In this document: piece by piece, positions 3,776 to 20,703 of the stretch
Layout: each line of letters starts with the position of its first letter
How positions within the stretch are numbered: position 1 is the first letter of the stretch
Program-made: the position numbers and the translations under genes
Source of the DNA: a virus
Lineage: Duplodnaviria; Caudoviricetes
IMG/VR virus record: IMGVR_UViG_3300002461_000269
Coordinates: 1 to 58,562 of that record
Length of the DNA stretch: 58,562 bases
Reading direction: 5' to 3' (one strand)
The notes under the pieces: generated by a model
Seen by the model: only the letters and a program-made list of their open reading frames with translations
What the model was told of the DNA's origin: nothing
Databases searched by the model: none

Positions 3776-4402
3776 ATGCAAGGTCTAGGCGCCGCACTAC
3801 AGCCCGCCGCGCAGCCCGCACAGCCCGGCGCTGCGCCTGTTGCAGATCCGGCCGCGGCATCGCCCGGCCAGGAAGCAACGCCCGAGGAGCAGGCGCTCTA
3901 CGACGACTTCATCGGCCGCGCCGAGAGCATCCTTATGCCGGAGCGCGGCAAGGTATCGCCCGAGATAGTCGCCAACCTTCGCGGTGACTTTGACCCGCAG
4001 GCTGCACAGGTGTTCGCATCGGCCGAACCGCCGCTCGCACAATCACCGCAGGACGCGGTATCGGGCACGGCTGTTTTGCTCACGATGATGATCGAAGCCG
4101 GCGCGAAGCAGGAGGGCGTCGACTTCCCCGATGACGTGGTGATGCACGCCGGGACTGAGGTGGTCGAAATGCTGATTGCCGTGTCCGAGGCGGCGGGCAT
4201 CCATGAGTTCGACGAGGGCGAGGAAATGGAAGGCATCCTCTACCGCGCAATGGATCTGTACCGGGTGGTGAGCCCGCGCATCGACCAGGAAACCCTCAAG
4301 GCTGGCTTCGCGCAGCTGATGGAAGCGAACGACGCCGGCAAGCTCAACGAGGTGCTCCCCGGCCTGCCTGGCGGTGCACCGCTTGAGGGAGCGCCGGCAT
4401 GA
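3776..4402 (+). CDS. Hypothetical acidic protein, ejection cluster
   Basis: Strong RBS TAAGGAG and coupled to the next gene. Confidence 0.7.
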   Translation: MQGLGAALQPAAQPAQPGAAPVADPAAASPGQEATPEEQALYDDFIGRAESILMPERGKVSPEIVANLRGDFDPQAAQVFASAEPPLAQSPQDAVSGTAVLLTMMIEAGAKQEGVDFPDDVVMHAGTEVVEMLIAVSEAAGIHEFDEGEEMEGILYRAMDLYRVVSPRIDQETLKAGFAQLMEANDAGKLNEVLPGLPGGAPLEGAPA

Positions 4403-5124
4403 GCTTTGTTCTCGCTGGCCTGCTGCAAGGCGTTGGTCAGGGCATTCAGAAGCAGGGCGCCGAAAAGGCGGCGGCCGAGCAGGCACAACGCGATAACGAC
4501 TTTCAGGTCGCGCTGGAGAACCTGCGCTCTGCGAACGATCGCACCAATGCCGCCAACACGGCATCGCTGAACGACGAGAACACCCGCAAGGAATACGGCT
4601 ACAAGAACGACTTCGAGGAAAAGCAACTGCCCCGCCGAATTGCAGAAGCGCGGGCCGATGGCGAGATCCGCAAGGACGTCGACAACAACGCGACTGCAAA
4701 CAACATTCGCAGCGCACAGGTTCAAGGTGCAATCACGCGGCAGAACGATGCGGCATCGCAGAAGCTCGCCAAGGATCTTGAGAGCGGAGATATTGCCGAT
4801 ACCTTTCTCGACGAGAGCGGCGAGTATGTCGGTATCACACGCACCGGGAAGCAGGTTAGAACCGGCGTGCGCGCAAACGCGGTCGACACGACGATCAAGT
4901 CGGGCAGCAGCGGCGGTTCGTCCCTGTTCCCCGAGCTTGCCGAAACCCCGGCCGTGCAGGCAGCGGCCGCCCCGGCGCCGCGTGCGCCGGCCCCCAAACC
5001 AGCAGCACAAGGCGGCAAGATCATGACGCAAGCGGACATTGACGCCACAGCGAAGGCGAGGAACCTATCGAAGCCGGCGGCCAAGCTGCTCCTTGAGGAA
5101 TTAGGCTTTAGGTTGAAGTCCTGA
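4399..5124 (+). CDS. Putative ejection protein
   Basis: N-terminal LAGLLQGVGQG followed by coiled coil, typical of podovirus internal proteins. Confidence 0.6.
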   Translation: MSFVLAGLLQGVGQGIQKQGAEKAAAEQAQRDNDFQVALENLRSANDRTNAANTASLNDENTRKEYGYKNDFEEKQLPRRIAEARADGEIRKDVDNNATANNIRSAQVQGAITRQNDAASQKLAKDLESGDIADTFLDESGEYVGITRTGKQVRTGVRANAVDTTIKSGSSGGSSLFPELAETPAVQAAAAPAPRAPAPKPAAQGGKIMTQADIDATAKARNLSKPAAKLLLEELGFRLKS

Positions 5125-5125
5125 C

Positions 5126-8100
5126 ATGGCCGGCCGTGACCTCCTTGCGGGGATTCCGCGAGACGAGCTTCTGTCTGCCAGCGAACGCTTGCGCGCCAAA
5201 GCCCCCCAAGGCCGCGACCTTCTTGAAGGTGCGAGCGAGGGTGACTTGCGCGCGGCGGAAACACGCTTGCGCGAGCGCGCGGCACGCGACGAGGAAGCCA
5301 AAGCCAATCGGGAGAGCGCAGCCGAGGCAGCGCGCCGCCCCTCTGACCCCGGCGTAGGCTCGCTCCTTGGGCTTGGCAGCGCGCGCCGCCCTGCACCCGC
5401 AGCCGGGCCGAGCAGCTTCTTTGCCAGCGAGCGACCCGTTGCAGCAGAGCGCGAGCAATTCCTTGCCGAGAACCGCACCCGCGTTCCCACCGGCGAGATT
5501 AAGGCCGACAACTACATCGAGCAGCAGGCGGCCAAGATCGGTCAGGCTGGCCTTGGCCTTGCCGCCGGCGGTGCGCGCGCCGTCATCGCGCTGAGTGACA
5601 AGCTGCAACGCAATATCGGCGTCTTGCCCGGCGACCAGGCAGCGCGCGATGTGCTCACAACCTTTGCCGAAGACTCCGAGATCACCGCAGGCCGCCGCGT
5701 TGAAGGCACCACCTCGTTTGAGGACGTGAAGGAAAACCCGCTGCTGGCTGGCAAGTTCATCTTGGATGAAGGCCCGGCATCACTGGCGATCACGCCGCTG
5801 CTGCTTAATCCCTATGGGGCTGCGGCGGTTGGCCTTGGCACCGCAGGCGGCATCGCGCAGGAGCGCGCCGTCAATGATGGCCGCACCGAAGCCACGGCAG
5901 GCGACCTTGCCGTAGCAGCGCCGTTCGCAGCCGGGAGCCTGGCGCTCGACAAGTTCGGTTTCGATCGGTTGCTCAACCCCGGTTCGGGGGCGCTTATCAC
6001 CCGCATCCTGAAAGCGGGCGGCACCGAAGGCCTGACCGAAGGTACGCAGGGCGCGCTTGAAAACCTTGGCGGCTCGCTGGGTACAGAGCGCGGCGTTGAT
6101 TTGAACGAGCTGCGCGACAGCATCACCGCCAGCGCTCTTGTTGGCACCGGCGCAGGCGCAGGATTCCGCGGCGGCTCCGAAGCCGTTGACGCCACCGCGA
6201 AGGCAATCACTGCACGCCGCGCTGCACGCGCCACCATCACGCCCGACGACGAGGCAAGCCCGCTCGACACTGCCGACATTGAGGCAGGCCGCGCCGCACA
6301 GATCGAGGTCGAGCTAGGCAAGCAGCAGAGCAGCAACATCGAGCTTCCCGAGGTGGGCGGCCGCGTCAACGTGCTTGTGCCAGGCTCATCGACCCCGGTT
6401 GAGGGTACCTTTGCCGGTTCGTTCTCCGATGCGGATGGCGCCGGGATCGAGGTTATTCTCTCGGACGGCCAGACCATCCGCGAATACAACGACAACATTG
6501 AAGACGCCGGTTACAAGATTACCCCGATCCAGTCGGCCGCGAGTGGAAGCGCCGCCGCTGGCCCGGCCGCGCCTACTGCCAGCCCTTCGGTTCGCACCGG
6601 ACAGCAATCAGGCGCGGCCGGATTCGATATGGGCCGCTATCAGGCACAGAACAGCCAGATCGAAAGCGGCAACCGGCCCTACATCAAAGCTGACACGTCA
6701 TCGGCAAGTGGCCTGTTCCAGTTCGTCAAGAAGACATGGATTGCCGAGGGCGGCGCATGGGGCAATGACGATAGCCAGGCGTTCGGCGGCTTGAAGCCAT
6801 CGGCCGAGGAGCAGCGCGCCCGGTTCAAGTCTTTCACTGACAAGAACGTGGCAGGCATCAAGGCGATTGGCGCACCGGTCACCGACGGCAACGTCTACCT
6901 TGCGCACTTCCTCGGGATGGGCGGCGCGCGCTCGATCCTTGGCGCTGACCCGAACACGCCAGTGGCGCAGCTGCTCAAAGACGACCAGATCACCGCGAAC
7001 AAGAGCATCCTCAAAGGCAAGACCGCCGGCGACGTCATCGCCTGGGCCGCGCGCAAGATGGGCGGCGCGCTCCCCGCGCAGGCAGGCGGCGAGAGCTTTG
7101 CCGCGCCTGATACCGAGCGCGAACCCTTCGAGTTCAGCAACCGCGACGAGCCCGAGGCCGCAGCACCGGCCCTGATTGGCAAGCCTATCCCGCTGCGCGT
7201 CGAGGACCGTCAGGAAACCGCCGTGGTTCCCGCCACCTTGCAAGAGGTGCCGGTGCGCTATGCCGTGGCCGAGCTTGCGGATCTCGTCCCGTCCAACACC
7301 CCTGACGGCGCAGTGAACCCGGCATTCCCGGCCGAGCGTCAGCCCCGCGACCGTACCCGGGCCGCCAGTCAGAACCAGGTGCGCAACATCGCCACCAACC
7401 TTTACCCGCGCCTGCTTGGCCGCGACGTGAAGGCGAGCGACGGCGCCCCGATCATTTCCGCCGATGGTGTGGTCGATAGCGGCAACGGCCGCGTGATGGC
7501 GCTATCGCAGGCCTATGCGCAGGGAGGCCAGCAGGTCGACGCCTATCGGGCAATGCTCGAAGAAGAAGGCTTCGACGTAAGCGGCATGACGCAGCCTGTC
7601 ATGGTGCGCGTGCGCGATGAAATGCCGGCCGCCGATGTGGCGCGGTTCGTGCGTGACAGCAATGCGCGCTCCACCGCCAGCATGTCCGGCGTCGAGACGG
7701 CATCCACCGATGCAGCGAGCATGGGCTCCAACCTCCTCGGGCTTTACCGCGGCGGCGACCTCGACACGTTGAACAATTCCGATTTCGTGCGCGGCTTCAT
7801 GCAGGCATTCGTGCCGGCCAGCGAAGTTGGCGACATGGTAATGAAGGACGGCCGCCCATCGGCCAACCTCTTGCGCCGCATCGAGGCCGCGCTCCTGGTG
7901 CGCGCGCTGGGCCCGCAGAGCTTTGTCGAATGGCTGGTTGATTCCCGGTCGAGCAAGATCAAGTCGATTGGCAACGCGCTCATCGAGACGTCGGGCAAGC
8001 TGGCGCAGATGCGCGAGGCAGCAGCACAGGGCATCATTGACCCGTCGGTCGATATTTCCGCCAACGTGGCCGAGGCGGTGACGCTGGTTGACCGTGCACG

Positions 8101-11100
8101 GCGCGAAGACCGCGGCGTAGCCGAGTTCGTCAATCAGGTGGATGCGTTCTCCGGTACGCTCGACCCGATCACCGAGGCCGTTTTGCGGCTGATGTACAAA
8201 GACCCGGCGTTCAAGAAGGCGCGCTCGCAGAAGGATCTGACCAACGCGCTGACCTTCTACATCGAGCAGGCCATGGTGACGGTGCCGGGCGGCGGGCTGA
8301 TTGCCTCGACAAGCAACCCGGCCTCTGATATTCTGGCGCTCGCCAATGCAAGACAAGATGACCCCACAGCGCGACCCAGCGCCAAGCCCGCAGCAGCCGA
8401 CGGACAGATCGGCAGCCTGGTCGATCCTGTCGAAGACGTTCGACCGGCTGGCACAGACAGCGGAGAGCGAGCCGGAGAAGGCGTACAGCCGGGGGCTGGC
8501 ACAGAAGGCAGCGGCGAAAGCCAAGCCGATCTAACAGATAACCGTAGCGATGCGGTTCAGCGCGAAGGTGAGGCAGAGTCGGTAGATCCAACTGCCGGTG
8601 ATGACGCCTCACCTTCATACCGCCTCGAAGACACCACAAGCGGCAAGGGCATTGCCCTGTTCGATGCGACCCCGGCGCAGCTGGCGGCGATCGAAGCGGC
8701 TGGCATTGCCAAACCTGCGAAGCGCAGCGACGGCGCGATGGTGTTCAGCAAGAAGCGCGAGGCGGCTATTCGTGCTGCGCTGGAGCTTGTCGCTGAGGCA
8801 GATGGCCCAATTCTTGATCGTGCCGAGCGCCTGCGAATGGTGCGCGAAGCTGTCAACGGCAGCGCTGATACAAGCATAGAAGGCGACTTGATTGTAGGGC
8901 CGGGCCTGCGGCTGAACTTTCAGACGGCAAGCGAAAGCGAATTGCGAAGCGCCTTGGCCAGGGTGACAGAAACGGTCACCCCTGCGGAGGATGATACCGC
9001 CAAGGCGCGCGGCGCCGCTGCACCCACCACCGCAGGCAAAGGCCTTCTCGGCCGCAACCGTGACGGCAACGAGGTGTTCGAGGACGAGCGCGGCGTGCGC
9101 TCCTACGTCGAGAACGGTATTCGCCTGACCGAGAGCGTGCAGATGCGCCCGGTTCGTGGCGAGGGCATCCGCCTATCGGTCGACGTGGCGAACCGCTGGG
9201 AATCCTACAAGACCACCGAGGAGCTTGGGCAGGAGCAGGCGCAGGAAGAAACGCGCATCGGTCGAGAATACGATTCGATGCTCAGTGATATTCGCCGGGC
9301 ACAGCAACAGCTGGACTCTTTCGGGGGCGAGCAGGATGCGACGTTCAAGAGCGGCGGCGTCAAGAGCCGTGAGCGCGTGATCGTGAAGGCCACCAACGAG
9401 GATGGCTACAACAGCGTGCGCGACATTAAGGATCTCGCCCGCGGTGCGTTCATTGTCGACAGCATGGAGCAGGCCGAGGCGCTGGCGACAGCAATCGGTG
9501 AGCGCTTCACCGTTGTGCAGGACAAGGGCTGGCAGCGCCTTGATAGCGGCTATGCCGATCACAAGCTGATTGTCGAAAGCAGCGGCATCAAGGCCGAATT
9601 GCAGATCGTTCCGTCAGTGGTGTGGAATGCCAAGAAGGCCGGTGGCGCGAACAAGCTCTATGAGGAGCAGCGCGCGCCGGGCGTCTCGGAAGAACGCTAT
9701 GCCGAGCTTGAACGTCAGCAGCAGGAAATCTATTCGGCTGCGCTTGAGGCTACCGGCTTCGCCCAATTCGCCAGTGCGGCAAAGTCTGCATCGGGGAACT
9801 CGGCTTCGGCTTCTTCGCGCGAGAGCGAAACACCTTCCTTGGTCGCAAGCCCGGGCGCTTCGGCCCAGGTCGAGTCCTCGCGCCAGACCAATGCCAGCGG
9901 GGGTGCAATCGAAAACACGGCGGCAAGCCGGAACTCTACTTCTTTGAACGTGGGTGACACTTCAACCTCCGAGGACAATGTAGGAGCAAACTCTCAAGAA
10001 AGCAATAACGCAGAGGTTAATCGTTTCGCCAACAATACCCTGTTCACTGCCGACAAGGTAGAGGCTGCGCGCGCCCGCATGAAGGACCGCATGAAGCGGC
10101 TGAATGCCGGCGTCGATCCTGAAATGCTGATCGACGGCATGGTCATCGCTGGCGCCTACATCGAGGACGGCGTGCGCAACTTTGCCGACTTCGCCAAGCA
10201 GATGCGCGCCGACTTCGGTAACGGGATCACCCCGTACCTGCTGTCCTTTTGGGAAGGTGCCCGCAACTATCCCGGGCTGAACACCGAGGGCATGACCTCG
10301 CCTGACGTGTCGCGCGCGATCAGCGAAATGATTGCAGCCGATGCGGCGCCAACTGTTGAGCAATCCTCAACGGTTCAACCCGAACCGCAGGCCGACCTAC
10401 CCGAGCTTGCCCGCGTGTTCGTGGAAGCGCTGCGCACCCGCAGCTTTGCCAGCATCACCGAGGCCCGCGCCTTTGCCAAGGAGGCAACCGGCCAGGACTT
10501 CCGCCCCGGCACGCTCGAAGCCAAGAAGCTCGACGAGGCGATCGAGGCCGCCTTGGTGTTCAACGCCCGCGCGATCGTGGCCGAGGGCGCCGCACCGCTG
10601 GCAACCTATCGCCAGCTTGTCAGCCTCTACGGCCGTCAGCCCAACCTTGGCGTTCGCACCTCCACCAGCGTGCAGGAGCAGGCCTACTCGACCCCGGCAC
10701 CGCTCGCCTATCTGGCTGCACTGCGCGCCGGTATCAGCAACAGCACCACGGTGTACGAACCCAGCGCCGGCAACGGGATGCTGCTTATCACCGCCGACCC
10801 TGCCAAGGTGACCGCGAACGAGTTGAATGCTGACCGCGTGGCGCAACTGCGTGACCTCTACCCGCAGGCGACCATCACCCAGGGCGATGCGACCGCAGCC
10901 AATCCCGACGGGCCACAGCGCGACCGCATCATTGCCAACCCGCCGTTCGGCCCGGTCAAGGACGAGCAGGGCGACACTGTGATCTTCGACTTGGGCGACG
11001 GCTACGAGGCACGCGAAATCGACCACGCCATTTCGCTGCTTTCGCTCGACATGATGAAGAACGGCGGCAAGGCTGCGCTCATTGTTGGCTCTGTCGCCAA

Positions 11101-14100
11101 GCAAACCCGCAACCGCGAGGACGCCTACAACGGCAAGGCCAAGCGCGAGTTTTACTTCCGGCTCTATTCCGAGTACAATGTGACCGAGCACTTCACCGTG
11201 AACGGCGACCTGTACAAGAAGCAGGGCGCCGCTTGGCCGGTGGACGTGATCGTGATTGAGGGCCGCGGCAAGTCTGCCTTGCCGCTCCCCGCAGTCAAAG
11301 CCCCGCGGATCTACGATTCGTGGGATGCACTGGAGAACGCCCTTGTTGAGCCCGCTCAAGTATCTGGAGAAGCTGGAAGCGCGGACGCTGGAACTGCTGG
11401 AGCAGGACAGCGACCCGCAGGCGGCAATGGCGATGCTGGACGAGGCGGCAATCGAGGGCGGGCTGACACAGGCGACGTCACCGCAGAGCAGCCCGGCGAC
11501 GTTCGCGGCGAGCCTGCTGTCGGACAACCCGATGGCGTTGGACTGGATCAGCGCGAAGCGGGACGCGGAAGCGTGGACCCTGCACCCCGACCGGTTCGAG
11601 AGCCTGGACGAGATCGTCAGCGCAATGCGCCCCAGCCCCAACTAGCAGAAGGCGAAGCCGCGCCTGCACAGGTGCGCTACTCCCCGGCGAGCGGCAGCTA
11701 CTCGCTCGACACGCTTGTGCCCTACAACATGCAGACCGCCGCGCAGAACGCGCTGGCGCGCATCGAGGCCAAGCACGGCAGCATCGACGCCTATGTGGCC
11801 GACAAGCTCGGCTTCACCCGCGAGGAAATGGGCAAGCGCCTTTCCGCCGAGGCAACCGACGCGATCGGGCTGGCGCTCGACAACATGGACCGCGTTGACC
11901 CTGCCACTGGCAAGGGCGCCGCTTTCATCATTGGTGACCAGACCGGTATCGGTAAGGGCCGCGTCGTCGCATCGGTGCTGCGCTATGCCATGAAGGAAGG
12001 CCGCACTGCGATCTTCGTTACCGAGAAGCCCAACCTCTACGCTGACATTTACCGCGACATGATGGACGTCGGTGTGAAGGAAATGCTCGGACGTGAGCCT
12101 GTCCTAGTGATGACCAACGCCGGTGAAAGCATCCCGCTAGGCGGCGGCAAGGAGCTAAAGAGCGGCGGCAGCGCGGCGCACAGCAAGCGGCTGGAGCGTG
12201 TCGCGCGCGGCGAAGAACAGTTCGACCTGCTGATGACGACATACTCGCAGATGCAGACCGTCAAGGGGCAGGTGACCCAGCGCCAGCAGGTGCTTGAGAA
12301 GCTGGCCGAGGGCGCGATCATCGTGTTCGACGAAAGCCACAACGCCGGCGGTCAGGGGCCGAACGAGCGGCGCGACAAGAAGGCCGAGAAGGGCGAGGTT
12401 GCCCCGAACCGCGCCGAGTTCGCGCGGATGCTGGCGCGCAAGGCGCAAGGCGTGATGTTCTCCAGCGCCACCTATGCCAAGCGCCCCGAGGTGATGGACC
12501 TCTACGCCCGCACTGACATGGGCCTTGCCGTGGCCGACCCGAAGGATTTGGGCGAAGCGATTGCCAACGGCGGCGTGCCATTGCAGCAGGTGCTTGCCTC
12601 TGCGCTGGCCGATGCAGGCCAGTACGTGCGCCGCGAACGGACATGGGAAGGTGTCAATTACCGCACCCCGCGCGTGCCGGTGGACGAGGCCGTCTATGGC
12701 GACGTGACCGAGATCCTACGCAGCATCCGCGAGTTTGAGGACGCCTTCATCACAGAGGTGAAAGAGGCGATCGACAAGGACGCCCGCGCCGAAGCGAAAA
12801 GCCTTTCGGCTGACGGTTCGGTTGGCGGCGCCGGCGTAAGCTCGACCAACTTCACGTCGGTGATGCACAACATCATCGAGCAGATGCTCTTGTCCCTGAA
12901 AGCGGGCCCGGCCGCCGACCGCGCGCTTGAGGCACTGCGCGCCGGCCGCAAGCCTGTCATCACCGTGGCGAACACCATGGGTTCGTTCATTCAGGAATAC
13001 GCCGACGAACGGAACATCAAGACCGGCGGCGCGATCGACCTCGACTTTGGCGCGGTGTTCGAGCGCTACCTCGACCGCACCCGGCAGTACACCGTGCGCA
13101 AGCCGTTCTCGAAGGAGAAGGGCGAGAAGAAATACATCAGCGATAGCGAGCTTGGCCCCGAGGGGCTGGCTGCATTCCGCGCCATTCAGGCGAAGATCCG
13201 CGAAACCGCATTCGGCCCGCTCCCGATTTCCCCGATCGACTTCATCGCACAGCGCTTGAAGGACGAGGGCTACACCGTGGGCGAGATTACCGGCCGCTCG
13301 CACACCATTGACTATGCGGGCGGTGCACCGACCCTGCGGCTGCGCGGCGCCAAGGAAACCGGGATTGCCGGGCGCCTGGCTGCGGTGAACGGCTTCAACT
13401 CCGGCAAGATCAACGCCATGATCTTGAACCAGTCAGGCTCGACCGGCTTGTCGATCCATGCCAGCGACCAGTTCAAGGATCAGAGCCCGCGCACGATGAT
13501 TATCGCGCAGGCCGAGCGCAACGTCGACACGCACATGCAGATGCTTGGCCGTATCCACCGTACCGGACAGGTGGTGCTTCCCGAGTATGACCAGCTTGTA
13601 GCCGAGGTGCCGGCAGAAATGCGCCCCGCCGCTGTGCTGGCAAAGAAGATGGCGAGCCTCAACGCCAACACGACGGGCGCGCGCGGTTCGGCCGTGACGT
13701 CGGACGAGATCCCCGACTTTATGAACGACTTCGGGGACGAGGTGATTGCTCGCATCATGGAGGAAGACACCGACCTCTACCGCGTGCTGGGCAAGCCGCT
13801 GGGTGAGAGCAAGAACGGCGGCTATATCCGCGAAGGCGCGGCCCGCAAGGTGACCGGCCGCCTCATGCTCCTGCCGCTGGCCGAGCAACAGGATTTCTAC
13901 GACAACTTCCTTGGTCAGTACCAATCGTACCTGGCACAGAAGGAAGCGGCTGGCGAAGCTGGGCTCGAAGCCAAGACCCTGCCGCTCGATGCGCGGATCG
14001 TGGACGCCAGCAATGTTGTGGCTGCGACCCGCGCCGGCACCCCATTTGGTGAAGCGGTGGTAATGGAGACGCTCGACGTCAAGCGGCTGGGCAAGCCTAT

Positions 14101-17100
14101 GTCGTCAGCGCAAGTGCTGGAGCGCATCAGTGAGACGATTGGCGCCAGCGTGCCAGACGGCAGCCCGGCCAGCGCGCTCGACCAGCTGCGCCGCGATGGT
14201 GAAGGCTGGATCAGCGACACCGTATCGCAGCCTGCGCTGACCGAGTTCGAGACGTACCGCCAGCAGACCGTCGACAATGCCAGCGAGAAGGCGGCGCCGG
14301 AGATTGCCGACCGCCTCAATCAGAACCGACTGGCCTTCCGCCAGCTGCTCGACATTGCCTACCCCGGGCGCGGTGTCCTGCTCTACAACGAGAACGGCGA
14401 CCCCTTGGGCGGCGTGGTCATCAACGTGGACAAGCGCGGCAAGGCCAAGAACCCTATCGCCTTGAGCACATGGCACGTCACCATTGCGACGGCCGATTCC
14501 TCGCGCCAGATCACCATTCCGCTTTCGCAGCTGCGCACCCGCAACATGCCGGAGGATGCGGGCCGGTTGATCGAAGCGACGTCGCGGATCGAGGGCTACC
14601 CTGTGCTCGAAGCCTTCGACAGTATGCAGGCCGAGGCGCGCGAGAAGCGTGTGATCTTCACCGGCAATATCCTCGCTGCCTACAAGGAGACGAACGGCAA
14701 GGGCCAGGTGGTCAACTTCGTGGGCGAGGATGGCAGCGTGCGCCCCGGCATCATGATGCGCCGCGGCTACAACCATAGCGGTGTGGTGAAGAACCGCCCC
14801 GTCGACTTCCGTATGCCCAAACAGGTGATCGAGTGGATGCGCGGCGGGCGCGAAGCCTACGGCGCCGGCGTATCGGTGGCGCTGGATGGCGGCCAGATCA
14901 AGGTGACGACAGCCGCATCGAAGCGCGGCGGCGGGGACGTGTTCCTTAACCGCGATGTGATTGCGGCGCTGGGCACGGACTTTGTGAAGACGTCGGGCGG
15001 CATGGTCGCGCGCGCACCGGAGAGCAAGGCAACCGCAGTCGTGGCCGCGCTGATGCGGACGGGCGCCAAGCTGCAAGCCAAGACCGACCTTGCCGACGCG
15101 CGCCAGCTTGTTGCCGGCAGCCAGGATGCACTGGACAGCCGCCCCGACCTATTCGACGCCCCAGCACAGCCCGAACGCACCATGACGCAGGCGCAGCGCG
15201 CCGAGCTTGAGGCACGCCAGCAGCAGGGCAAGGCGCGGCGCGGCGGGCAGCAGGGGCTTGGCGACCAAGAGGGCGGGCTGTTCAGCAGCGAGCGCGACCA
15301 GGGCAGCCTGTTCCTGCGCACCGAGAGCGGCGAGCCTATCACCGGCCAACAGGCCAGTGAGCTTGAAGCGGATCTTCGCGCGCGCCTAGATGCAATGGGC
15401 CTGCAACGGGTGAACCTTCGCGTCGGCACGCGGGCGCAGCTGGCACGGCCGGGAGCAACGCGCGGGCCGGATGGCCAATACCTCCCGTCGCTCAAGCTGA
15501 TTGCGGTGGCGAGCGATGCGGTCAATGGCAGCACGTTCACGCTGGGCCATGAGGCCGTGCACGCGCTGCGCGACCTTGGCGCGATCAGCCAGAGCGATTG
15601 GAGCTTGCTTGAGGGCGCGGCGTGGACGCGCAATCCCGAAGCGCAAGCCAGCATCAAGCGCCGCTACCCCGACCTGCGCGAGAATGCACAGCGCGAGGAA
15701 GCCGTGGCCGATCTGTTCGGGCGCTTCCAGGTCAACAGCGAGGGAACGGTGGGCGCGATTGCGCGCATCATCCGCCGCACGCTGGGGATCTTCGAGGCTA
15801 TCCGCAATGCACTGCGCGGCAAGGGCTTCACCATGGACCGCCGCGCGTTTGACGTGCTGGAGGACATTCGCACCGGCCGCACAGCGCAGGACATTGGCCG
15901 GTTCGAGACGGGCAACGCGATCAACAAGCGGAGCAATCCCAATACCCCGACGGGCGGGCCTGACCAGTTCGCGGAGAGCGAAGGCTCGCTCGACAGCCGC
16001 GCCGCCGTCGTCAGCCTGGCCGGCAGCGACCCGACGTGGAAGGGCAAGACCGCCGTAGCCTTCGACAAGTTCCGCACCACGATGCAGGACCGCTACATGC
16101 CGATGCTGCGCACCCAGCGCACGATCGAGACAATGACCGGCGAGAGCCTGCCCAATTCCATGAACCCCTACTTGGGCGAGGAATTGATGACGGGCCGCAT
16201 CGGCTCGCGTCTGGAGAAGCTGCACGAAGACATGATTGGCCCGCTGTTCGACGACATGGCGCGCGCCAAGGTGAACGTCGACGAGCTTGAAACCTTCCTC
16301 TACGCCCGGCACGCGCCGGAGCGGAACGCCAAGATGCAGGAGATTAACCCTGACCTGGCACCGGGCGAAGGCTCCGGCATGACTGACATTGAGGCGATGG
16401 CGGTGATGAACCGTGTTCGCAAGGCCGGGAAGATGGAGGACATGGAGCGGCTGGCCGCCAAGGTCGACGCCCTGCGCGATAGCGCGCTCGACTTCCGCGT
16501 CGAATCCGGTTTGATGAGCCAGAAGGCGGCTGACGAATGGCGCTCGACCTATGAATACTACGTCCCTCTGCGCGGCTTCAAGGAGATTGAGGGCGAGCTT
16601 TCCGAGGAAACGGCCGAGCGTATCAACAAGTCAGGCGGCGGGATCAACGTGCGCGGGCCGGAGAGCAAGCGCGCATTCGGGCGCCGGTCAAAGGCCGATA
16701 GCCCACTGTCCTACCTGATCTTGCAGGCAGAGGAGGCCATCGTGCGCGGGGAAACCAACCGTGTCGCGCAGCGCTTCATCGAGCTTGCCCGCGCCAATCC
16801 TGACGAGGATTTCTGGCAGGTCAACAAGGTGTCGGTCAATCGCCGGATGAACCCCGAGAGCGGTCAGGTCGAGGAGGTGGTGAGCTACAACCTCGCCGCC
16901 AAGGACAAGGATTACACCGTCGTCGCCAAGATTGACGGCAAAGAGGTGCGCGTCACCATGAACCAGGCCAACCCGGCCGCGCGCCGGCTTGCCAATTCGA
17001 TGCGCAACATCACCCAGCACCAGCTGGATTGGGTGACCAAGTACCTCGGGACGGTCAACCGCTACCTTTCGACGGTCAACACCACCCTGAACCCCGAGTT

Positions 17101-18703
17101 CATCATCACCAACGCCTTCCGCGACATGCAGACGGCAGCGATCAACTTGCAAAGCATCGACGTCCCGGGCATCGGTAAGGCGGCGGCTGGGCACTACAAG
17201 GGCGCGCTGGCCGCATCGCTCAAGGGATCGTGGGGCAAGGGCTCCGGCGAATGGAAGCAGTATTACGACGAGTTCATGCTTGCCGGTGGCCGGGTGTATT
17301 TCAACAACGTCGAGAACGTGGAGCAGATCCGCGCGCGGGTTAAGAGTTCGTTCGACATGGCGAACCTCAAGGCGGGCAACGGGGGCGAGGCACGCCTTCA
17401 CGTCAAGCGCGGGTTTATCGCTGTGCGCGATGCGATCGAGAACACCAACCAGGGGGTTGAGAACGCGGTGCGCCTTGCCGCCTATCGTGCGGCGCGCGAG
17501 GCAGGCGTTGACCAGGACAAGGCCGCGTCGATTGCCAAGAACCTGACCGTCAACTTCAACCGCCGCGGCACGTTCGGCCCGGCGCTGAATGCGGCGTACC
17601 TGTTCTACAATGCGTCGGTGCAGGGCTCGGTCACGCTGTTCCTCGCAGCCAAGCATCGCAAGGTGCAGAAGGTGCTTGCCGGAATTGCGGTTGCGGGCGC
17701 GCTCAACGAGTTCCTCAACATGATGCTGTCCGACGACGACGACGACGGCGAGAGCTTCTACGACAAGATCCCGTCCTACGAGAAATCGCGCAACATGATC
17801 GTGATGACGAGCGGCTCGACCTACATCAAGATCCCGCTGGCCTACGGGTACGGCGCGATTTGGGAGGCAGGCCGTACAGCCAGCGAGATTTATCGCCGCG
17901 GTGGCGACAAGTGGCAGGAGAGCGCGGGCAACCTTGTGACCACCATCGTCGACAGCTTCAACCCGGTGGGCGGGACGGACAACATCATCAACTTCTTTGC
18001 GCCGACGATCCTCGATCCGTTGGTCGACATTGAGTTGAACAAAGACTTCTCCGGCAAGCCGATCCTGCCGAACCAAAGCCCTTACGACGTGGAGGAGCCC
18101 GACGCGCAGCGCTATTTCGGGAGCGTGGGAACGCACTGGCGCGAGGTCACGGACTTCCTGACGAACGCGACCGGGGGCAATGTGGTCGAGCCCGGCTGGG
18201 TGGACGTGAGCCCCGAGACGCTCGAATATATGTTCGGCTTTGTGACGGGCGCGGCCGGTGGCTTTGTCGACCGCAATGCCGCTCTGCCTGACAAGGTTAT
18301 CAGGGGCGAGGTCGAGGCCAACGACGTACCGTTCGTGCGCAAGCTCATCGGCGGCGAGCCCGGCTGGCAGGACACAAGCCGGTATTACGATCGCGTGGGC
18401 GAGGTCGAGCAGGCCTACGAATACACCAAGCGCTACATCGAGGCCGAGCAGATCCCCGAGGCGCGCGCCTATGCCGAGCGCAAGGAGAAGGTGCTGACGC
18501 TGGTGCCGGCGATGAAGGAAGCGCAGAAGCTCATGCGCGAGGTCCGCAAGGAAAAGCGTACGATCGACTTCGAGTATGAAATGGGCCGGCTGGACGACAC
18601 GCAATATGAGGCTCGCCGTGAGCGCGCGAAAGAGGTAGAAGGGCGGATTGTCTCGGCGTTCAACACGCGCTGGAATGCTACCCTCTACCCCAAGGAGGAA
18701 TGA
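5126..18703 (+). CDS. Giant 4525-aa DarB-like polyvalent virion protein (SLT, ddrB-like ParB, RelA/SpoT-like NTase, N6-adenine MTase, strawberry-notch SF2 helicase, zincin-like peptidase, LPD38-like)
   Basis: SLT: IESG..SSASGLFQF, YLAHFLG (~6630-7065). ParB-like: QPRDR, DGAPII, SGNGR (~7245-8340). RelA/SpoT-like: KSRERVIVK, DLAR, SGYADHK, ELQ (~9270-9740). MTase: YSTP, EPSAGNG, NPPF (~10650-11330). Helicase: GDQTGIGKGR, DESH, SAT, QMLGRIHRTGQ (~11690-13950). Peptidase: HEAVH...EEAVA (~15550-15710). LPD38-like: YIKIPLAYGYG near the C-terminus. Confidence 0.9.
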   Translation: MAGRDLLAGIPRDELLSASERLRAKAPQGRDLLEGASEGDLRAAETRLRERAARDEEAKANRESAAEAARRPSDPGVGSLLGLGSARRPAPAAGPSSFFASERPVAAEREQFLAENRTRVPTGEIKADNYIEQQAAKIGQAGLGLAAGGARAVIALSDKLQRNIGVLPGDQAARDVLTTFAEDSEITAGRRVEGTTSFEDVKENPLLAGKFILDEGPASLAITPLLLNPYGAAAVGLGTAGGIAQERAVNDGRTEATAGDLAVAAPFAAGSLALDKFGFDRLLNPGSGALITRILKAGGTEGLTEGTQGALENLGGSLGTERGVDLNELRDSITASALVGTGAGAGFRGGSEAVDATAKAITARRAARATITPDDEASPLDTADIEAGRAAQIEVELGKQQSSNIELPEVGGRVNVLVPGSSTPVEGTFAGSFSDADGAGIEVILSDGQTIREYNDNIEDAGYKITPIQSAASGSAAAGPAAPTASPSVRTGQQSGAAGFDMGRYQAQNSQIESGNRPYIKADTSSASGLFQFVKKTWIAEGGAWGNDDSQAFGGLKPSAEEQRARFKSFTDKNVAGIKAIGAPVTDGNVYLAHFLGMGGARSILGADPNTPVAQLLKDDQITANKSILKGKTAGDVIAWAARKMGGALPAQAGGESFAAPDTEREPFEFSNRDEPEAAAPALIGKPIPLRVEDRQETAVVPATLQEVPVRYAVAELADLVPSNTPDGAVNPAFPAERQPRDRTRAASQNQVRNIATNLYPRLLGRDVKASDGAPIISADGVVDSGNGRVMALSQAYAQGGQQVDAYRAMLEEEGFDVSGMTQPVMVRVRDEMPAADVARFVRDSNARSTASMSGVETASTDAASMGSNLLGLYRGGDLDTLNNSDFVRGFMQAFVPASEVGDMVMKDGRPSANLLRRIEAALLVRALGPQSFVEWLVDSRSSKIKSIGNALIETSGKLAQMREAAAQGIIDPSVDISANVAEAVTLVDRARREDRGVAEFVNQVDAFSGTLDPITEAVLRLMYKDPAFKKARSQKDLTNALTFYIEQAMVTVPGGGLIASTSNPASDILALANARQDDPTARPSAKPAAADGQIGSLVDPVEDVRPAGTDSGERAGEGVQPGAGTEGSGESQADLTDNRSDAVQREGEAESVDPTAGDDASPSYRLEDTTSGKGIALFDATPAQLAAIEAAGIAKPAKRSDGAMVFSKKREAAIRAALELVAEADGPILDRAERLRMVREAVNGSADTSIEGDLIVGPGLRLNFQTASESELRSALARVTETVTPAEDDTAKARGAAAPTTAGKGLLGRNRDGNEVFEDERGVRSYVENGIRLTESVQMRPVRGEGIRLSVDVANRWESYKTTEELGQEQAQEETRIGREYDSMLSDIRRAQQQLDSFGGEQDATFKSGGVKSRERVIVKATNEDGYNSVRDIKDLARGAFIVDSMEQAEALATAIGERFTVVQDKGWQRLDSGYADHKLIVESSGIKAELQIVPSVVWNAKKAGGANKLYEEQRAPGVSEERYAELERQQQEIYSAALEATGFAQFASAAKSASGNSASASSRESETPSLVASPGASAQVESSRQTNASGGAIENTAASRNSTSLNVGDTSTSEDNVGANSQESNNAEVNRFANNTLFTADKVEAARARMKDRMKRLNAGVDPEMLIDGMVIAGAYIEDGVRNFADFAKQMRADFGNGITPYLLSFWEGARNYPGLNTEGMTSPDVSRAISEMIAADAAPTVEQSSTVQPEPQADLPELARVFVEALRTRSFASITEARAFAKEATGQDFRPGTLEAKKLDEAIEAALVFNARAIVAEGAAPLATYRQLVSLYGRQPNLGVRTSTSVQEQAYSTPAPLAYLAALRAGISNSTTVYEPSAGNGMLLITADPAKVTANELNADRVAQLRDLYPQATITQGDATAANPDGPQRDRIIANPPFGPVKDEQGDTVIFDLGDGYEAREIDHAISLLSLDMMKNGGKAALIVGSVAKQTRNREDAYNGKAKREFYFRLYSEYNVTEHFTVNGDLYKKQGAAWPVDVIVIEGRGKSALPLPAVKAPRIYDSWDALENALVEPAQVSGEAGSADAGTAGAGQRPAGGNGDAGRGGNRGRADTGDVTAEQPGDVRGEPAVGQPDGVGLDQREAGRGSVDPAPRPVREPGRDRQRNAPQPQLAEGEAAPAQVRYSPASGSYSLDTLVPYNMQTAAQNALARIEAKHGSIDAYVADKLGFTREEMGKRLSAEATDAIGLALDNMDRVDPATGKGAAFIIGDQTGIGKGRVVASVLRYAMKEGRTAIFVTEKPNLYADIYRDMMDVGVKEMLGREPVLVMTNAGESIPLGGGKELKSGGSAAHSKRLERVARGEEQFDLLMTTYSQMQTVKGQVTQRQQVLEKLAEGAIIVFDESHNAGGQGPNERRDKKAEKGEVAPNRAEFARMLARKAQGVMFSSATYAKRPEVMDLYARTDMGLAVADPKDLGEAIANGGVPLQQVLASALADAGQYVRRERTWEGVNYRTPRVPVDEAVYGDVTEILRSIREFEDAFITEVKEAIDKDARAEAKSLSADGSVGGAGVSSTNFTSVMHNIIEQMLLSLKAGPAADRALEALRAGRKPVITVANTMGSFIQEYADERNIKTGGAIDLDFGAVFERYLDRTRQYTVRKPFSKEKGEKKYISDSELGPEGLAAFRAIQAKIRETAFGPLPISPIDFIAQRLKDEGYTVGEITGRSHTIDYAGGAPTLRLRGAKETGIAGRLAAVNGFNSGKINAMILNQSGSTGLSIHASDQFKDQSPRTMIIAQAERNVDTHMQMLGRIHRTGQVVLPEYDQLVAEVPAEMRPAAVLAKKMASLNANTTGARGSAVTSDEIPDFMNDFGDEVIARIMEEDTDLYRVLGKPLGESKNGGYIREGAARKVTGRLMLLPLAEQQDFYDNFLGQYQSYLAQKEAAGEAGLEAKTLPLDARIVDASNVVAATRAGTPFGEAVVMETLDVKRLGKPMSSAQVLERISETIGASVPDGSPASALDQLRRDGEGWISDTVSQPALTEFETYRQQTVDNASEKAAPEIADRLNQNRLAFRQLLDIAYPGRGVLLYNENGDPLGGVVINVDKRGKAKNPIALSTWHVTIATADSSRQITIPLSQLRTRNMPEDAGRLIEATSRIEGYPVLEAFDSMQAEAREKRVIFTGNILAAYKETNGKGQVVNFVGEDGSVRPGIMMRRGYNHSGVVKNRPVDFRMPKQVIEWMRGGREAYGAGVSVALDGGQIKVTTAASKRGGGDVFLNRDVIAALGTDFVKTSGGMVARAPESKATAVVAALMRTGAKLQAKTDLADARQLVAGSQDALDSRPDLFDAPAQPERTMTQAQRAELEARQQQGKARRGGQQGLGDQEGGLFSSERDQGSLFLRTESGEPITGQQASELEADLRARLDAMGLQRVNLRVGTRAQLARPGATRGPDGQYLPSLKLIAVASDAVNGSTFTLGHEAVHALRDLGAISQSDWSLLEGAAWTRNPEAQASIKRRYPDLRENAQREEAVADLFGRFQVNSEGTVGAIARIIRRTLGIFEAIRNALRGKGFTMDRRAFDVLEDIRTGRTAQDIGRFETGNAINKRSNPNTPTGGPDQFAESEGSLDSRAAVVSLAGSDPTWKGKTAVAFDKFRTTMQDRYMPMLRTQRTIETMTGESLPNSMNPYLGEELMTGRIGSRLEKLHEDMIGPLFDDMARAKVNVDELETFLYARHAPERNAKMQEINPDLAPGEGSGMTDIEAMAVMNRVRKAGKMEDMERLAAKVDALRDSALDFRVESGLMSQKAADEWRSTYEYYVPLRGFKEIEGELSEETAERINKSGGGINVRGPESKRAFGRRSKADSPLSYLILQAEEAIVRGETNRVAQRFIELARANPDEDFWQVNKVSVNRRMNPESGQVEEVVSYNLAAKDKDYTVVAKIDGKEVRVTMNQANPAARRLANSMRNITQHQLDWVTKYLGTVNRYLSTVNTTLNPEFIITNAFRDMQTAAINLQSIDVPGIGKAAAGHYKGALAASLKGSWGKGSGEWKQYYDEFMLAGGRVYFNNVENVEQIRARVKSSFDMANLKAGNGGEARLHVKRGFIAVRDAIENTNQGVENAVRLAAYRAAREAGVDQDKAASIAKNLTVNFNRRGTFGPALNAAYLFYNASVQGSVTLFLAAKHRKVQKVLAGIAVAGALNEFLNMMLSDDDDDGESFYDKIPSYEKSRNMIVMTSGSTYIKIPLAYGYGAIWEAGRTASEIYRRGGDKWQESAGNLVTTIVDSFNPVGGTDNIINFFAPTILDPLVDIELNKDFSGKPILPNQSPYDVEEPDAQRYFGSVGTHWREVTDFLTNATGGNVVEPGWVDVSPETLEYMFGFVTGAAGGFVDRNAALPDKVIRGEVEANDVPFVRKLIGGEPGWQDTSRYYDRVGEVEQAYEYTKRYIEAEQIPEARAYAERKEKVLTLVPAMKEAQKLMREVRKEKRTIDFEYEMGRLDDTQYEARRERAKEVEGRIVSAFNTRWNATLYPKEE
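8306..8334 (+). promoter_or_regulatory. Internal sigma70-type promoter for nested gene 1
   Basis: TCGACA (8306-8311), 17 bp spacer, TATTCT (8329-8334), with an extended -10 TG. Lies 11 bp before the ATG at 8346. Confidence 0.6.
8346..8534 (+). CDS. Nested gene 1 (+1 frame, 62 aa) in linker after ParB-like domain
   Basis: MQDKMTPQ...AAWSILSKTFDRLAQTAESEPEKAYSRGLAQKAAAKAKPI*. Codons are mostly G/C-ending in this frame while the host frame is a low-complexity linker. Has its own promoter. Confidence 0.6.
   Translation: MQDKMTPQRDPAPSPQQPTDRSAAWSILSKTFDRLAQTAESEPEKAYSRGLAQKAAAKAKPI
8564..8616 (+). other. Long stem-loop inside giant gene, just downstream of nested gene 1
   Basis: GAAGGTGAGGC...GCCTCACCTTC perfect 11-bp inverted repeat enclosing an inner stem CGGTAG/CTGCCG. 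Confidence 0.6.
9730..9960 (-). CDS. Nested gene 2 (antisense, 76 aa), candidate antitoxin of the RelA/SpoT-like domain
   Basis: GGAGG RBS (9966-9970) 5 nt before GTG. Acidic protein MSPTFKEVEFRLAAVFSIAPPLALVWREDSTWAEAPG.... The host frame here is a Ser-rich antisense shadow. Has its own promoter. Confidence 0.7.
   Translation of the reverse strand: MSPTFKEVEFRLAAVFSIAPPLALVWREDSTWAEAPGLATKEGVSLSREEAEAEFPDADFAALANWAKPVASSAAE
9977..10005 (-). promoter_or_regulatory. Antisense sigma70-type promoter for nested gene 2
   Basis: Minus strand TTGCTT, 17 bp spacer, TACATT, in an AT-rich patch 6 nt before the RBS. Confidence 0.65.
11343..11645 (+). CDS. Nested gene 3 (+1 frame, ~100 aa) between MTase and helicase domains
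   Basis: GGAGA RBS at 11332 then TTG. Helical acidic protein (LKYLEKLEARTLELLEQDSDPQAAMAMLDEAA...). About 9 of 100 codons end in A/T by hand count. The host frame is a G/R/D/P-rich shadow. Confidence 0.7.
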   Translation: MLSPLKYLEKLEARTLELLEQDSDPQAAMAMLDEAAIEGGLTQATSPQSSPATFAASLLSDNPMALDWISAKRDAEAWTLHPDRFESLDEIVSAMRPSPN

Positions 18704-18915
18704 TGCTTCTCTGGATCTATACCGTGGTGCTGGCCGCCGCGTTCGCGCTGCCCTTCTATGCGCTCTGGCGCACGCTGGGGACAGAGAAGGTGCCGAAGCG
18801 CTTGGCCCGGCGCTATGCGCTGGTGATCTTCGCGGGTGCGTTTCTTGTGATTGGGACCGCCAACATTGCGCACTACACTTCGCAGGGGAAGCCCAACTTT
18901 GGGCAGACTGGGTAG
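18700..18915 (+). CDS. Small two-TM membrane protein
   Basis: AAGGAGG RBS, coupled to the giant gene stop, with two hydrophobic helices. Confidence 0.7.
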   Translation: MMLLWIYTVVLAAAFALPFYALWRTLGTEKVPKRLARRYALVIFAGAFLVIGTANIAHYTSQGKPNFGQTG

Positions 18916-18981
18916 GATTTTTAACACGATCCCGCGACGTGTAAAAGGAATCGCGTTTCTTTAACATGAGGACCGAGCACC

Positions 18982-19095
18982 ATGTTCAGCCGAGCGATCT
19001 CAGCCTACCGGATCTGGCGCGGCAGGGGCGCGGCCAAGATGGACGCTGGCCTCTGGCTGCATTGGGTGGTGTTCGGGCGCTATCCGCGGCTTTAA
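18982..19095 (+). CDS. Possible 37-aa peptide
   Basis: GAGGA then ATG. MFSRAISAYRIWRGRGAAKMDAGLWLHWVVFGRYPRL*. Confidence 0.3.
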   Translation: MFSRAISAYRIWRGRGAAKMDAGLWLHWVVFGRYPRL

Positions 19096-19144
19096 GCATT
19101 TCCGCGAAATGTCCCTCGCAGGAAAGTAGTTCAGCCTCTTAAAG

Positions 19145-20425
19145 TCACCCCCTTCGAGCAAGCCCCAGCAGATCCGCCGCCGGCGCCATCCCTTCCATGA
19201 GCAGCGCGGCCCACTCCTCCGCAATCTCCCGGCGCTTCGCCATGTGCTCCGAACGGTTATAGGCCGCCTCGACCTTATCCTTGGGGACGTGGGCGAGCAT
19301 CGCGTCGATGACGTATCGGTCAGCCGGGCGGCGCTCATTCATCACGGTGGAGAATGCCGCGCGCCAACCGTGGGGAACGTGCCGGCTATGCCACCCGCAC
19401 CGATTGTAGAGGTAGCCGATTGCGTTCTCGCATAGCGGGCGGTGGGCGTGGCGCTGGCCGGGGAAGACGTAGGCACAATTGCCGGTCAACTGGTGCACGA
19501 CTTGCACTACTTCGAGCGCTTGGGCGGTGAGCGGAACGACATGATCGTATGCCTCCTCGCCCTTGCGCTCCTTCTCCAGTTTCATCTTCTCGGCCGGGAT
19601 GCGCCAAAGGGCCATGTCCCATTTTTCGTCGGCATTTGAGGCACCAAAATTAACACCCTCGAACTCGCTCCACTCGGCGCGGCGCAACGTGCCTGGTCGC
19701 ACGGCGGTCAACGCCAGCAGGCGCGATGCCAGCAGGGTGACGGGGTAAGCGCCCGACGCCTCGGTGACGGTGAGGATCTCGCGCAGCTGCGCCACGTCCA
19801 CGATCGCCGGCTGCTTCTTGGCGCGCGGCTTCCGCTTCAATGCCGCGATGACGTTGGCCGCGGGATTGTGTGTCACCAGGCCTTGCGACTCTGCCAGCGC
19901 GAACACTGCCTGAATACGTTGCCGCAGCCGGTGTGCAGTTTCGACCGCGCCGCGCTTCTCGACCGGGCGCAGGGCTTCGAGCACGATCGGGCTGTCTATG
20001 TCGACTAGGGCAAGGTTGCCGATGCGCGGGAAGACGTCGCGCTCCAAGCTGTTGATGACGTCGGCCCGGTGTATCTCGGTCCAGCGCGGCCCGTTGAGGT
20101 CGTGCCATTCCCGCGCCACCGTCTCAAAGGTCGATCGGCCGGAGGCCCGCCGGTCGCGTTCCTCTTTGCGCTTTTGCATGGAAGGATCGAACCCATCGCG
20201 CAGGATCTTGCGCGCCTGGTCGCGTGCCTCGCGCGCCTCGGACAAGGTGACGTCGGGATAGGCGCCGATTGCCATCTGCTTTTCCTTGCCCGCAAAACGG
20301 TAGCGCCACCGCCAGAGCTTCGATCCATTGGAGCGAATCAGCAGGGTGAGCCCTGCACCGTCGGCCATGCGATAGTCGCGCGGTGCGGGCTTTGCTTTGC
20401 GCGCGGCGAGGTCGGTCAGCTTCAT
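19145..20425 (-). CDS. int: Tyrosine integrase, P4-like with arm-binding domain
   Basis: N-terminal DGAGL..GSKLWRWRYRF. Catalytic R (VRPG), HGWR, LAH and AAY. GGAG RBS before the ATG at 20425. Confidence 0.95.
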   Translation of the reverse strand: MKLTDLAARKAKPAPRDYRMADGAGLTLLIRSNGSKLWRWRYRFAGKEKQMAIGAYPDVTLSEAREARDQARKILRDGFDPSMQKRKEERDRRASGRSTFETVAREWHDLNGPRWTEIHRADVINSLERDVFPRIGNLALVDIDSPIVLEALRPVEKRGAVETAHRLRQRIQAVFALAESQGLVTHNPAANVIAALKRKPRAKKQPAIVDVAQLREILTVTEASGAYPVTLLASRLLALTAVRPGTLRRAEWSEFEGVNFGASNADEKWDMALWRIPAEKMKLEKERKGEEAYDHVVPLTAQALEVVQVVHQLTGNCAYVFPGQRHAHRPLCENAIGYLYNRCGWHSRHVPHGWRAAFSTVMNERRPADRYVIDAMLAHVPKDKVEAAYNRSEHMAKRREIAEEWAALLMEGMAPAADLLGLARRG

Positions 20426-20440
20426 ATCAGTCTCCGCATT

Positions 20441-20703
20441 TGTGGGCATCGGTGCCCACATCGGGGCGCGGTGCCCACATTGGTGCCCGCACATTGGTGA
20501 GAGCGCTTGTCGCAATGTGATACAATATGGGACAAGCTCTAGCATCGCCTGCCGTCATTGTCTTGTCTGTATGGGACGGGATGCACGGCTATGATATTAA
20601 TCGGGTACGGAGCGGGTGCCCGTCGAAACCCCATAGAGAAACGGCAGAATTGCGCCATTTATTGAGGGTGCGCGCCGCGCGATGCCCACACCGATGCCCA
20701 CAC
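20441..20703. other. Probable attP site
   Basis: Arm-type repeats TGCCCACA flank both sides (20441-20494 and 20681-20703). Central imperfect inverted repeat CGGGTAC-N7-GTGCCCG at 20602-20622. Confidence 0.7.

Follow-up and report, generated by a model that had tools for sequence, protein, structure and literature searches.

In bacteriophage lambda, the small lysis proteins Rz and Rz1 bind one another, and the Rz1 gene is contained complete in the +1 frame of Rz. The immunity genes of polymorphic toxins are separate genes, which lie downstream and co-vary with the toxin domain. The nested arrangement of Rz and Rz1 is described in a preprint (bioRxiv 10.64898/2025.12.20.695498), and the same preprint reports, for Synechocystis slr0489, slr1079 and slr1082, intragenic out-of-frame genes in which both frames are translated and the products interact. 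Nested out-of-frame genes are already known as a kind from Rz/Rz1 and slr0489. Here, a candidate of this kind, termed L3, was studied in a stretch of 58,562 nucleotides (nt) from a virus of the Caudoviricetes (IMG/VR record IMGVR_UViG_3300002461_000269; the whole stretch is referred to as the window). L3 lies in the +1 frame of a gene for a giant polyvalent protein of 4525 amino acids (aa), at the junction between an N6-adenine DNA methyltransferase (MTase) domain and a helicase module. An earlier reading made from the DNA letters (the sequence-only reading) had proposed L3 together with two other open reading frames (ORFs), L1 and L2, nested after a ParB-like and a RelA/SpoT-like domain of the same protein. 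Comparison across related loci shows that L3 is a real nested gene under purifying selection with its own start signals. The position best matched by the data, which we hold to be very probably correct, is that L3 is real and separately translated, that L1 and L2 are unproven, and that a partner function for L3 is something we infer.

Like Rz1, L3 is a +1 gene with its own start that lies wholly inside another phage gene, and in the Rz/Rz1 case both products are made. Unlike Rz/Rz1, the host of L3 is a 4525-aa multi-enzyme protein, the overlap falls in a disordered linker between domains, and the L3 product looks cytoplasmic, acidic and helical. The Synechocystis slr0489 set also has a long out-of-frame gene within a host gene, and the relation between partners there is of the kind that L3 may have with its host; however, that set is an unrelated family on a bacterial chromosome with experimental proof, whereas L3 is known from comparison. 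A further likeness is to the polyvalent proteins exemplified by DarB of phage P1 (PMC5512222), virion-associated giant proteins with MTase, helicase and LPD domains, here known from the gene. Judged by its predicted domains, the host gene encodes a polyvalent protein as that paper uses the term, combining conflict-related domains, LPD domains and an MTase-helicase core. In contrast, a nested gene such as L3 is not part of the polyvalent architecture as given in that main text, in which the terms overlap, frameshift and linker have 0 occurrences. Polymorphic toxin–immunity cassettes resemble L3 in that a small gene directly follows an enzymatic module and that the locus is modular and swaps cassettes; they differ in that L3 is overprinted and in that the L2 ORF is kept where its supposed domain is missing. 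A literature search that included the main text of PMC5512222 found no paper describing this nested gene, and this agrees with the earlier statement that the architecture was undescribed. What sets L3 apart from the known cases is the giant polyvalent host, the overlap in an inter-domain linker, the host frame as passenger, and the recurrence at a single junction, found in 73 of 92 loci.

Conservation of L3 was studied in further loci sampled from IMG/VR, metagenomes and genomes. The peptide was compared by tblastn with the related locus L006, and the +1 frame of the linker was returned with 34% identity over 102 aa (E 3e-8) and with agreement at the hydrophobic positions, while the flanking domains of the window and L006 are just ~44% identical. 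When the two frames were scored over identical bases, the +1 frame outscored the host frame in three of three pairs, with 37.9 vs 9.0 bits for the window and L006, 24.7 bits vs no match for L024 and L025, and 189.9 vs ~138 bits for L001 and L002. The last two loci have only the MTase-helicase module in common with the window, at ~44% identity, and their homologous linker shows a like anomaly, with a GC content by codon position of ~.9/.6/.3 and the +1 frame scoring best. Each contains a 105-codon +1 ORF with a shared stop, and the differences between them at host positions 1/2/3 are inverted, being.16/.14/.04 in the linker vs ~.06/.04/.35 elsewhere. The idea that L3 is the relic of a recent frameshift was rejected, since relatives that are just ~44% identical share the arrangement and selection in the +1 frame persists. 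Right after the nested gene, L001 (positions 11195-11420) and L002 (11180-11400) have unrelated ~90-aa inserts in the host frame, in genes that are otherwise ~90% identical, and these inserts look like a cassette swap inside the linker.

The peptides of the window and of L006 were made into a profile, which was searched exhaustively against 1.84 billion representatives. The resulting family, termed family A, comprised 40 proteins at E<=1e-3, of which 15 were at E<=1e-10, mostly of ~100 aa and matched from end to end. One of the matches, P0005, is the window's own 100-aa L3 product starting at TTG 11343. Ten family A database proteins were looked up; all were unnamed or 'hypothetical', and half came from contigs of <1 kb. 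An alignment of the helicase N terminus led to 375 reported IMG/VR relatives, of which 80 were kept, and the junction itself was surveyed using 8725 six-frame ORFs from 110 sources, giving 92 junction loci that include a few duplicates of one contig. The round-1 profile, made from database proteins only, matched 34 loci, and after five rounds exactly one ORF was matched in each of 73 loci with no other match among the 8725 ORFs. Family A was present in 73 of the 92 MTase-helicase junctions; in 73 of 73 the ORF was in the +1 frame relative to the helicase, and in 73 of 73 it lay wholly inside the open host frame. No family A match was found in Bacteroides phage BS-TP4, Acinetobacter phage MD-2021a or 18 other junction loci, except for L098 at E.003. 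Two GenBank phages that were inspected have a single coding sequence (CDS) over the junction region, and neither has a family A member. GenBank phages gave no near match to the giant gene, the L3 peptide or P0006, and plasmids gave no match to P0013.

The action of selection on the nested frame was assessed on pairs of loci. Nineteen pairs qualified (70-97% nucleotide identity with full, frame-consistent cover), and nine disjoint pairs of 72-95% identity were taken. Differences at positions 1/2/3 of the +1 frame amounted to 111/87/177 of 799 each (.139/.109/.222), while the adjoining helicase in the same nine pairs, used as the control, gave.118/.077/.360 in the host frame. A frame-by-frame comparison of substitutions had been suggested in the sequence-only reading, and for L3 it revealed a clear +1-frame periodicity (chi-square p=1e-9) in which position 3 was the highest in nine of nine pairs.

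The start signals of the family were then examined after identical duplicates had been collapsed, which reduced the 73 ORFs to 63 distinct copies. A start codon was found 4-12 nt behind a Shine-Dalgarno (SD)-like motif in 62 of the 63 (51 ATG, 6 GTG and 5 TTG), the common pattern being AGGAG-7-ATG as the first codon past an upstream +1 stop. The motif was of at least five bases in 41 copies. The background for random start codons in the same loci was 9-12% for any motif and ~1% for 5-mers. Of 62 loci considered for alignment A6, seven were left out (L095, L085, L050, L057, L075, L060 and L051).

Modelling of L3 by AlphaFold2 (AF2) with 78 family sequences predicted a compact five-helix protein, with a predicted local distance difference test score (pLDDT) of 91.6 and a predicted template modelling score (pTM) of.82. 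The window copy has an isoelectric point (pI) of 4.23 (4.2) and a net charge of -10, and the median pI of family A is 4.6, with 70 of 78 members acidic (pI <6). Foldseek with the L3 model found nothing in the PDB at E<=1e-3 and nothing in BFVD, and the best hit in a wide VIA-align search had a Z of 4.1; this absence of a clear structural relative does not establish the L3 fold as new.

Several observations weigh against the preferred reading of L3. Nineteen of the 92 junctions are without family A, although nine of these have another +1 family and three have singletons. In principle, the shared composition of the +1 readings of G/A/E-rich linkers could have helped the iterative profile; however, none of its matches fell in another linker or another frame, and only database proteins had gone into round 1. 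The choice of start favoured the SD-bearing one among ~3 candidates per ORF, and this inflates the figure of 62 of 63, yet the excess over background is still large. The SD motif of L3 in the window is a 4-mer only. No match of the nested peptides to Pfam, PHROG or NCBIfam was found. Finally, free-standing or in-frame versions of family A may exist, and the joined members described below may be either chimeric or frameshifted contigs or true versions.

The DNA of the MTase-helicase junction is dual-coding. The +1 frame very probably holds an old, independently translated gene for a 100-aa acidic, five-helix protein of a previously undescribed family, and the host frame over L3 reads as a low-complexity spacer, which mainly has to remain open for MTase and helicase to be made as one polypeptide. 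The L3 frame shows genome-like codon usage together with purifying selection, and the host linker is of low complexity yet open in 73 of 73 loci. This codon-usage pattern fits a small gene that was absorbed into a fusion, as the sequence-only reading had imagined. The product would presumably be made from the late mRNA of the giant gene together with the giant protein, and its fixed position suggests that it might bind the MTase-helicase module and regulate it, inhibit it or help to assemble it. A role specifically in inhibition or immunity is conceivable but rather unlikely. A natural variant has lost 1014 nt in frame, and with them the MTase core, the whole of L3 and ~17 aa from the start of the helicase module. 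In run X3 the two forms coexist, with read depths of 14.1 for the deleted and 20.1 for the full form against 34.3 for the flanks. The joint loss of MTase core and L3 is a hint of coupling.

Genes nested out of frame go unreported in standard annotation, and at least 73 loci carry an unannotated protein, under selection and predicted to be well folded, at one fixed junction. This bears on the way in which giant anti-restriction proteins are studied, since knock-outs or truncations of a 'linker' in them would also strike the second gene. L3 is a clear-cut example from nature of dual coding with the long host frame as passenger, and its product is a concrete candidate for a regulator or partner of the MTase-helicase module.

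The three linkers were compared by a six-frame log-likelihood scan of codon usage, using 150-nt windows and a codon model of the giant ORF. The main frame was not the best in 18 of 448 scan windows, and all 18 fell within 8336-8575 (+1 frame), 9746-9985 (antisense) and 11276-11695 (+1 frame); with a model trained on all codons the main frame lost 15 of 448 and the places were unchanged. It had been claimed that three linkers lose the G/C-ending codon pattern while another frame reads as coding, and this unbiased scan picked exactly these three. GC by codon position was.66/.47/.79 for the whole ORF, compared with.80/.61/.53 in L1,.53/.67/.65 in L2 and.91/.64/.46 in L3; L1 and L3 thus have strongly lost G/C-ending codons and L2 has done so mildly, and L1 and L3 have a GC of.8-.97 at the first position in the host frame. 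The open frames of the nested ORFs extend over 8301-8534 (+ strand), 9730-9978 (- strand) and 11256-11645 (+ strand) for L1, L2 and L3, respectively. ORF length was rejected as evidence, as synonymous shuffles gave P = 0.21-0.98 for the three open frames. These lengths are unremarkable because stops in the +1 frame need a T at host codon position 2, which is rare in hydrophobic-poor linkers. Alternative-frame ORFs are indeed abundant, with 103 of at least 50 aa overlapping 4000-20000. Very long antisense open frames also occur within the giant ORF, at 16688-18967 (- strand, 759 aa) and 10397-11641 (- strand, 414 aa); the codon scan never prefers them, and they are shadow ORFs of the usual sort for a gene of high GC.

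Two ribosome-binding sites (RBSs) had been reported at these ORFs and both are present, as GGAG 7 nt upstream of TTG 11343 in L3 and as GGAGG 5 nt upstream of GTG 9960 in L2, where GGAGG-GTG lies opposite Thr/Ser codons of the host linker as their complement. No SD motif was found upstream of the L1 start, ATG 8346. Two promoters with 17-base-pair spacing had also been reported. Both sequences exist, and the one at L1 (TCGACA-17-TATTCT, 8306-8334, with TG) passes a promoter scan; the antisense one (TTGCTT-17-TACATT, 7 of 12 matches) fails it, and the count of sites is near chance. Promoters were rejected as evidence of nested genes, the giant ORF having 4 promoter-like sites against 1.6 +/- 1.2 expected.

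The L1 ORF was compared with L019, the one close relative available, in which its +1 frame is open and 76% identical. Third positions of the host frame differed at 11 of 59 codons in L1 compared with 100 of 270 in the flank (p=.006), and the differences by host position within L1 were 10/7/11 of 59. This suppression of third-position change fits dual coding, and relaxed constraint with a lower local divergence would fit too. Telling against dual coding, amino acid changes in this single comparison are alike in the two frames, at 15 of 59 for the host and 18 of 76 for the +1 frame. An AF2 model of L1 made from two sequences was uninformative, with a pLDDT of 71.5 and a pTM of.35. A word search with the L1 and L2 peptides, covering near lengths only and with its sensitivity limited to shared words, found no homologue, and neither the ParB piece nor alignment A4, used as queries for related loci, found any. 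L1 is suggestive and may be a second real nested gene, at clearly less than even odds.

In the case of L2, the antisense frame is also open in L019, where it scores 53.9 bits against 50.1 for the host frame and 32-46 for the other frames. The third positions of the antisense and host frames coincide, and substitution tests cannot separate the two because these positions are shared. Run X8 has 20 listed variants between 9709 and 9859, and 19 of them fall on the shared third position of L2. In all likelihood L2 merely results from a linker rich in Ser/Thr/Ala, and a real gene here is doubtful. The locus L019 is a rearranged architecture in which the RelA/SpoT-like domain is absent; it keeps the L2 linker and the antisense ORF. 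Positions 1-700 of L019 contain the end of a giant gene, then ~550 nt without a long ORF, and then an ORF entering in the middle of a ParB-like module. The alternative frames of L1 and L2 are open in L019 and the L3-type ORF is open in relatives, the evidence for L1 and L2 coming from one relative. The claim of separately expressible overprinted genes stands for L3, by conservation, substitutions, start signals and fold, but is not supported for L1, with one relative and no RBS, or for the shadow-like L2.

One explanation, the full form of the earlier proposal, is that all three nested ORFs are expressed inhibitors, each neutralising the domain upstream of it, and that they were absorbed as effector–immunity cassettes. 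It would account for the change of coding frame at exactly three linkers, for a real L3 that begins right at the end of the MTase domain, for a small acidic product like many inhibitors and DNA mimics, and for the loss of MTase core and L3 together in the natural variant; the suppressed third-position change in the host frame of L1, and the GGAGG-5-GTG of L2 with its frame open in L019, can be read in the same way. However, the pairing of each nested gene with its upstream domain fails at L2, as L019 retains that linker and ORF without the RelA/SpoT-like domain, and the two frames of L2 are equally conserved. The L1 and L2 peptides are without relatives beyond L019, L1 is without an RBS, and the promoter-like sites are near chance. 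At L3, MTase and helicase are both always present at family A junctions, and at least two unrelated +1 families, A and C, occupy that one junction. Taken together, these data make the explanation improbable.

A second explanation is that L3 is reached by a +1 (or -2) ribosomal frameshift after the MTase domain, giving a shorter giant protein that ends in a 100-aa domain. The geometry would suit such an exit, since the +1 ORF starts at the end of the MTase domain and its stop lies 6-51 nt before the helicase in most loci, and P0039, on a 920-nt contig, runs from the MTase C terminus straight into a family A domain. The SD-like motif and start, kept in 62 of 63 copies, would be needless for a frameshift product, though, and the nested ATG is closely preceded by a +1 stop in many loci; no slippery site was seen, though no search for one was made. 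Because SD motif and start are conserved, separate initiation is far likelier, and a frameshift exit appears very unlikely. The remaining explanation, that all three ORFs are compositional artefacts of GNN-rich linkers that are open in +1 and in which G at the +1 third position mimics coding, would agree with ORF lengths within the range of chance, with the T needed at host position 2 for a +1 stop and with the host first-position GC of.8-.97 in L1 and L3, and is viable for L2 and less so for L1, but is hardly credible for the set in view of L3, where homology of the +1 protein extends across hosts of differing GC content, substitutions have +1 periodicity, SD motif and start are conserved and a confident fold comes from co-variation.

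The linkers of related giant genes were examined in the same way. In a frame scan of 104 related loci, a frame other than that of the host won in 61 stretches, 31 of them on family A ORFs and 30 elsewhere, and the latter include three further groups, families B, C and D. Family B consists of +1 ORFs in the linker between a domain like window aa 1620-1750 and the MTase, and is nested in 12 of 12 loci (L003, L004, L007-L010, L012-L015, L018 and L110; for example L007 6896-7324 and L010 6702-7034); it is absent from the window. Two family B pairs showed +1-frame periodicity (p=.008). Family B has a weak match to Pfam TnpV (PF14198; 18.8-20.7 bits, below the cut-off of 27); the L3 protein has no such match. 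Family C is a second +1 family at the MTase-helicase junction, where it replaces family A just upstream of the helicase start, and is nested in eight of eight loci (L024, L025, L042, L055, L069, L078, L101 and L104); its products often start M..VAWTP. Family D, the fourth +1 family, is common to L011 and L112. In giant genes of this type, +1 genes embedded in linkers seem to recur. A bolder idea, which we regard as speculative and unlikely as a whole, is that the disordered linkers of giant polyvalent proteins from phages and plasmids commonly hide small, independently translated genes of several unrelated families, families A-D each being a dedicated partner that binds the neighbouring enzyme module. 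Family A would then be an acidic regulator resembling a DNA mimic, by which the producing cell would hold the MTase-helicase silent or assembly-competent, and L1 would be a further member in the window.

Some family A proteins are joined to other sequence. In P0011-P0013 (164-263 aa) the family A domain is at the C terminus, and in P0039 (192 aa) it is joined in frame to the C terminus of the MTase. In P0008 and P0009 it is joined to a motif of the host frame (FANN..FTADKV), and P0009, used as a query for related loci, gave only a short motif in common with the host frame. In P0007 (175 aa, on a 752-nt contig) the family A domain is joined in frame to another N terminus, which may be HrpA-like.

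The features of the giant gene are collected in the table. The G+C content of the virus record is ~63%. The host ORF matched the PHROG family of DarB-like antirestriction proteins (E 8.8e-72) and also a PHROG DNA methyltransferase, and its Pfam domains are LPD38, ddrB-ParB, AAA_34 and Helicase_C_4, the last two spanning aa 2237-2880. Of the domain names given in the sequence-only reading, 'ParB-like' is upheld by the Pfam match to ddrB-ParB. 'N6-MTase' is upheld as well, by a score barely over the Pfam cut-off (22.5 bits vs 20.4); an NPPF motif is present in the host protein, and the MTase alignment (A7) has 43 sequences. The name 'RelA/SpoT-like' found a weak PDB sequence match, to a chain named SaSAS (E 0.015), but no match in Pfam or NCBIfam.

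Table. Coordinates of the nested candidates, the deletion variant and the domains of the giant gene in the window
Feature	Position	Strand or frame	Details
Gene of the giant polyvalent (DarB-like) protein; supplies the host frame for every nested candidate	5126..18703	+	4525 aa; Pfam and PHROG matches
ddrB-like ParB domain, aa 706-830	7241..7615	+	Pfam PF18763, E 1.4e-34
L1 candidate, 62 aa from ATG 8346	8346..8534	+, +1 frame	Best in codon scan; status uncertain
L2 candidate, 76 aa from GTG 9960	9730..9960	-	Antisense best in codon scan; probably a shadow ORF
N6-adenine DNA methyltransferase domain, aa 1775-2070	10448..11335	+	Pfam N6_Mtase, 22.5 bits (cut-off 20.4)
Natural in-frame deletion variant, 1014 nt	10707..11720		Joint 10706->11721 in contigs of runs X7 and X3; 4-nt microhomology
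Shine-Dalgarno-like GGAG, in the last codons of the MTase domain	11332..11335	+	7 nt before TTG 11343
Host-frame linker, aa 2071-2181, low-complexity G/A/D/E/P/R-rich 'passenger'	11336..11668	+	Codon-position GC, frame bit scores
L3 (P0005, family A)	11343..11645	+, +1 frame	100 aa from TTG 11343; alternative start ATG 11325
Sno/SNF2-like helicase module, aa 2182-2880	11669..13765	+	Pfam AAA_34, Helicase_C_4; alignments A5, A8
LPD38 domain, aa 4212-4404	17759..18337	+	Pfam PF18857, E 6.6e-35

The remainder of the window has the context of a phage genome, with genes for an integrase, a terminase, a portal/adaptor and a major head protein. The integrase gene lies directly after the giant gene, at 19145-20545 on the - strand, and from this adjoining gene the phage is probably temperate.

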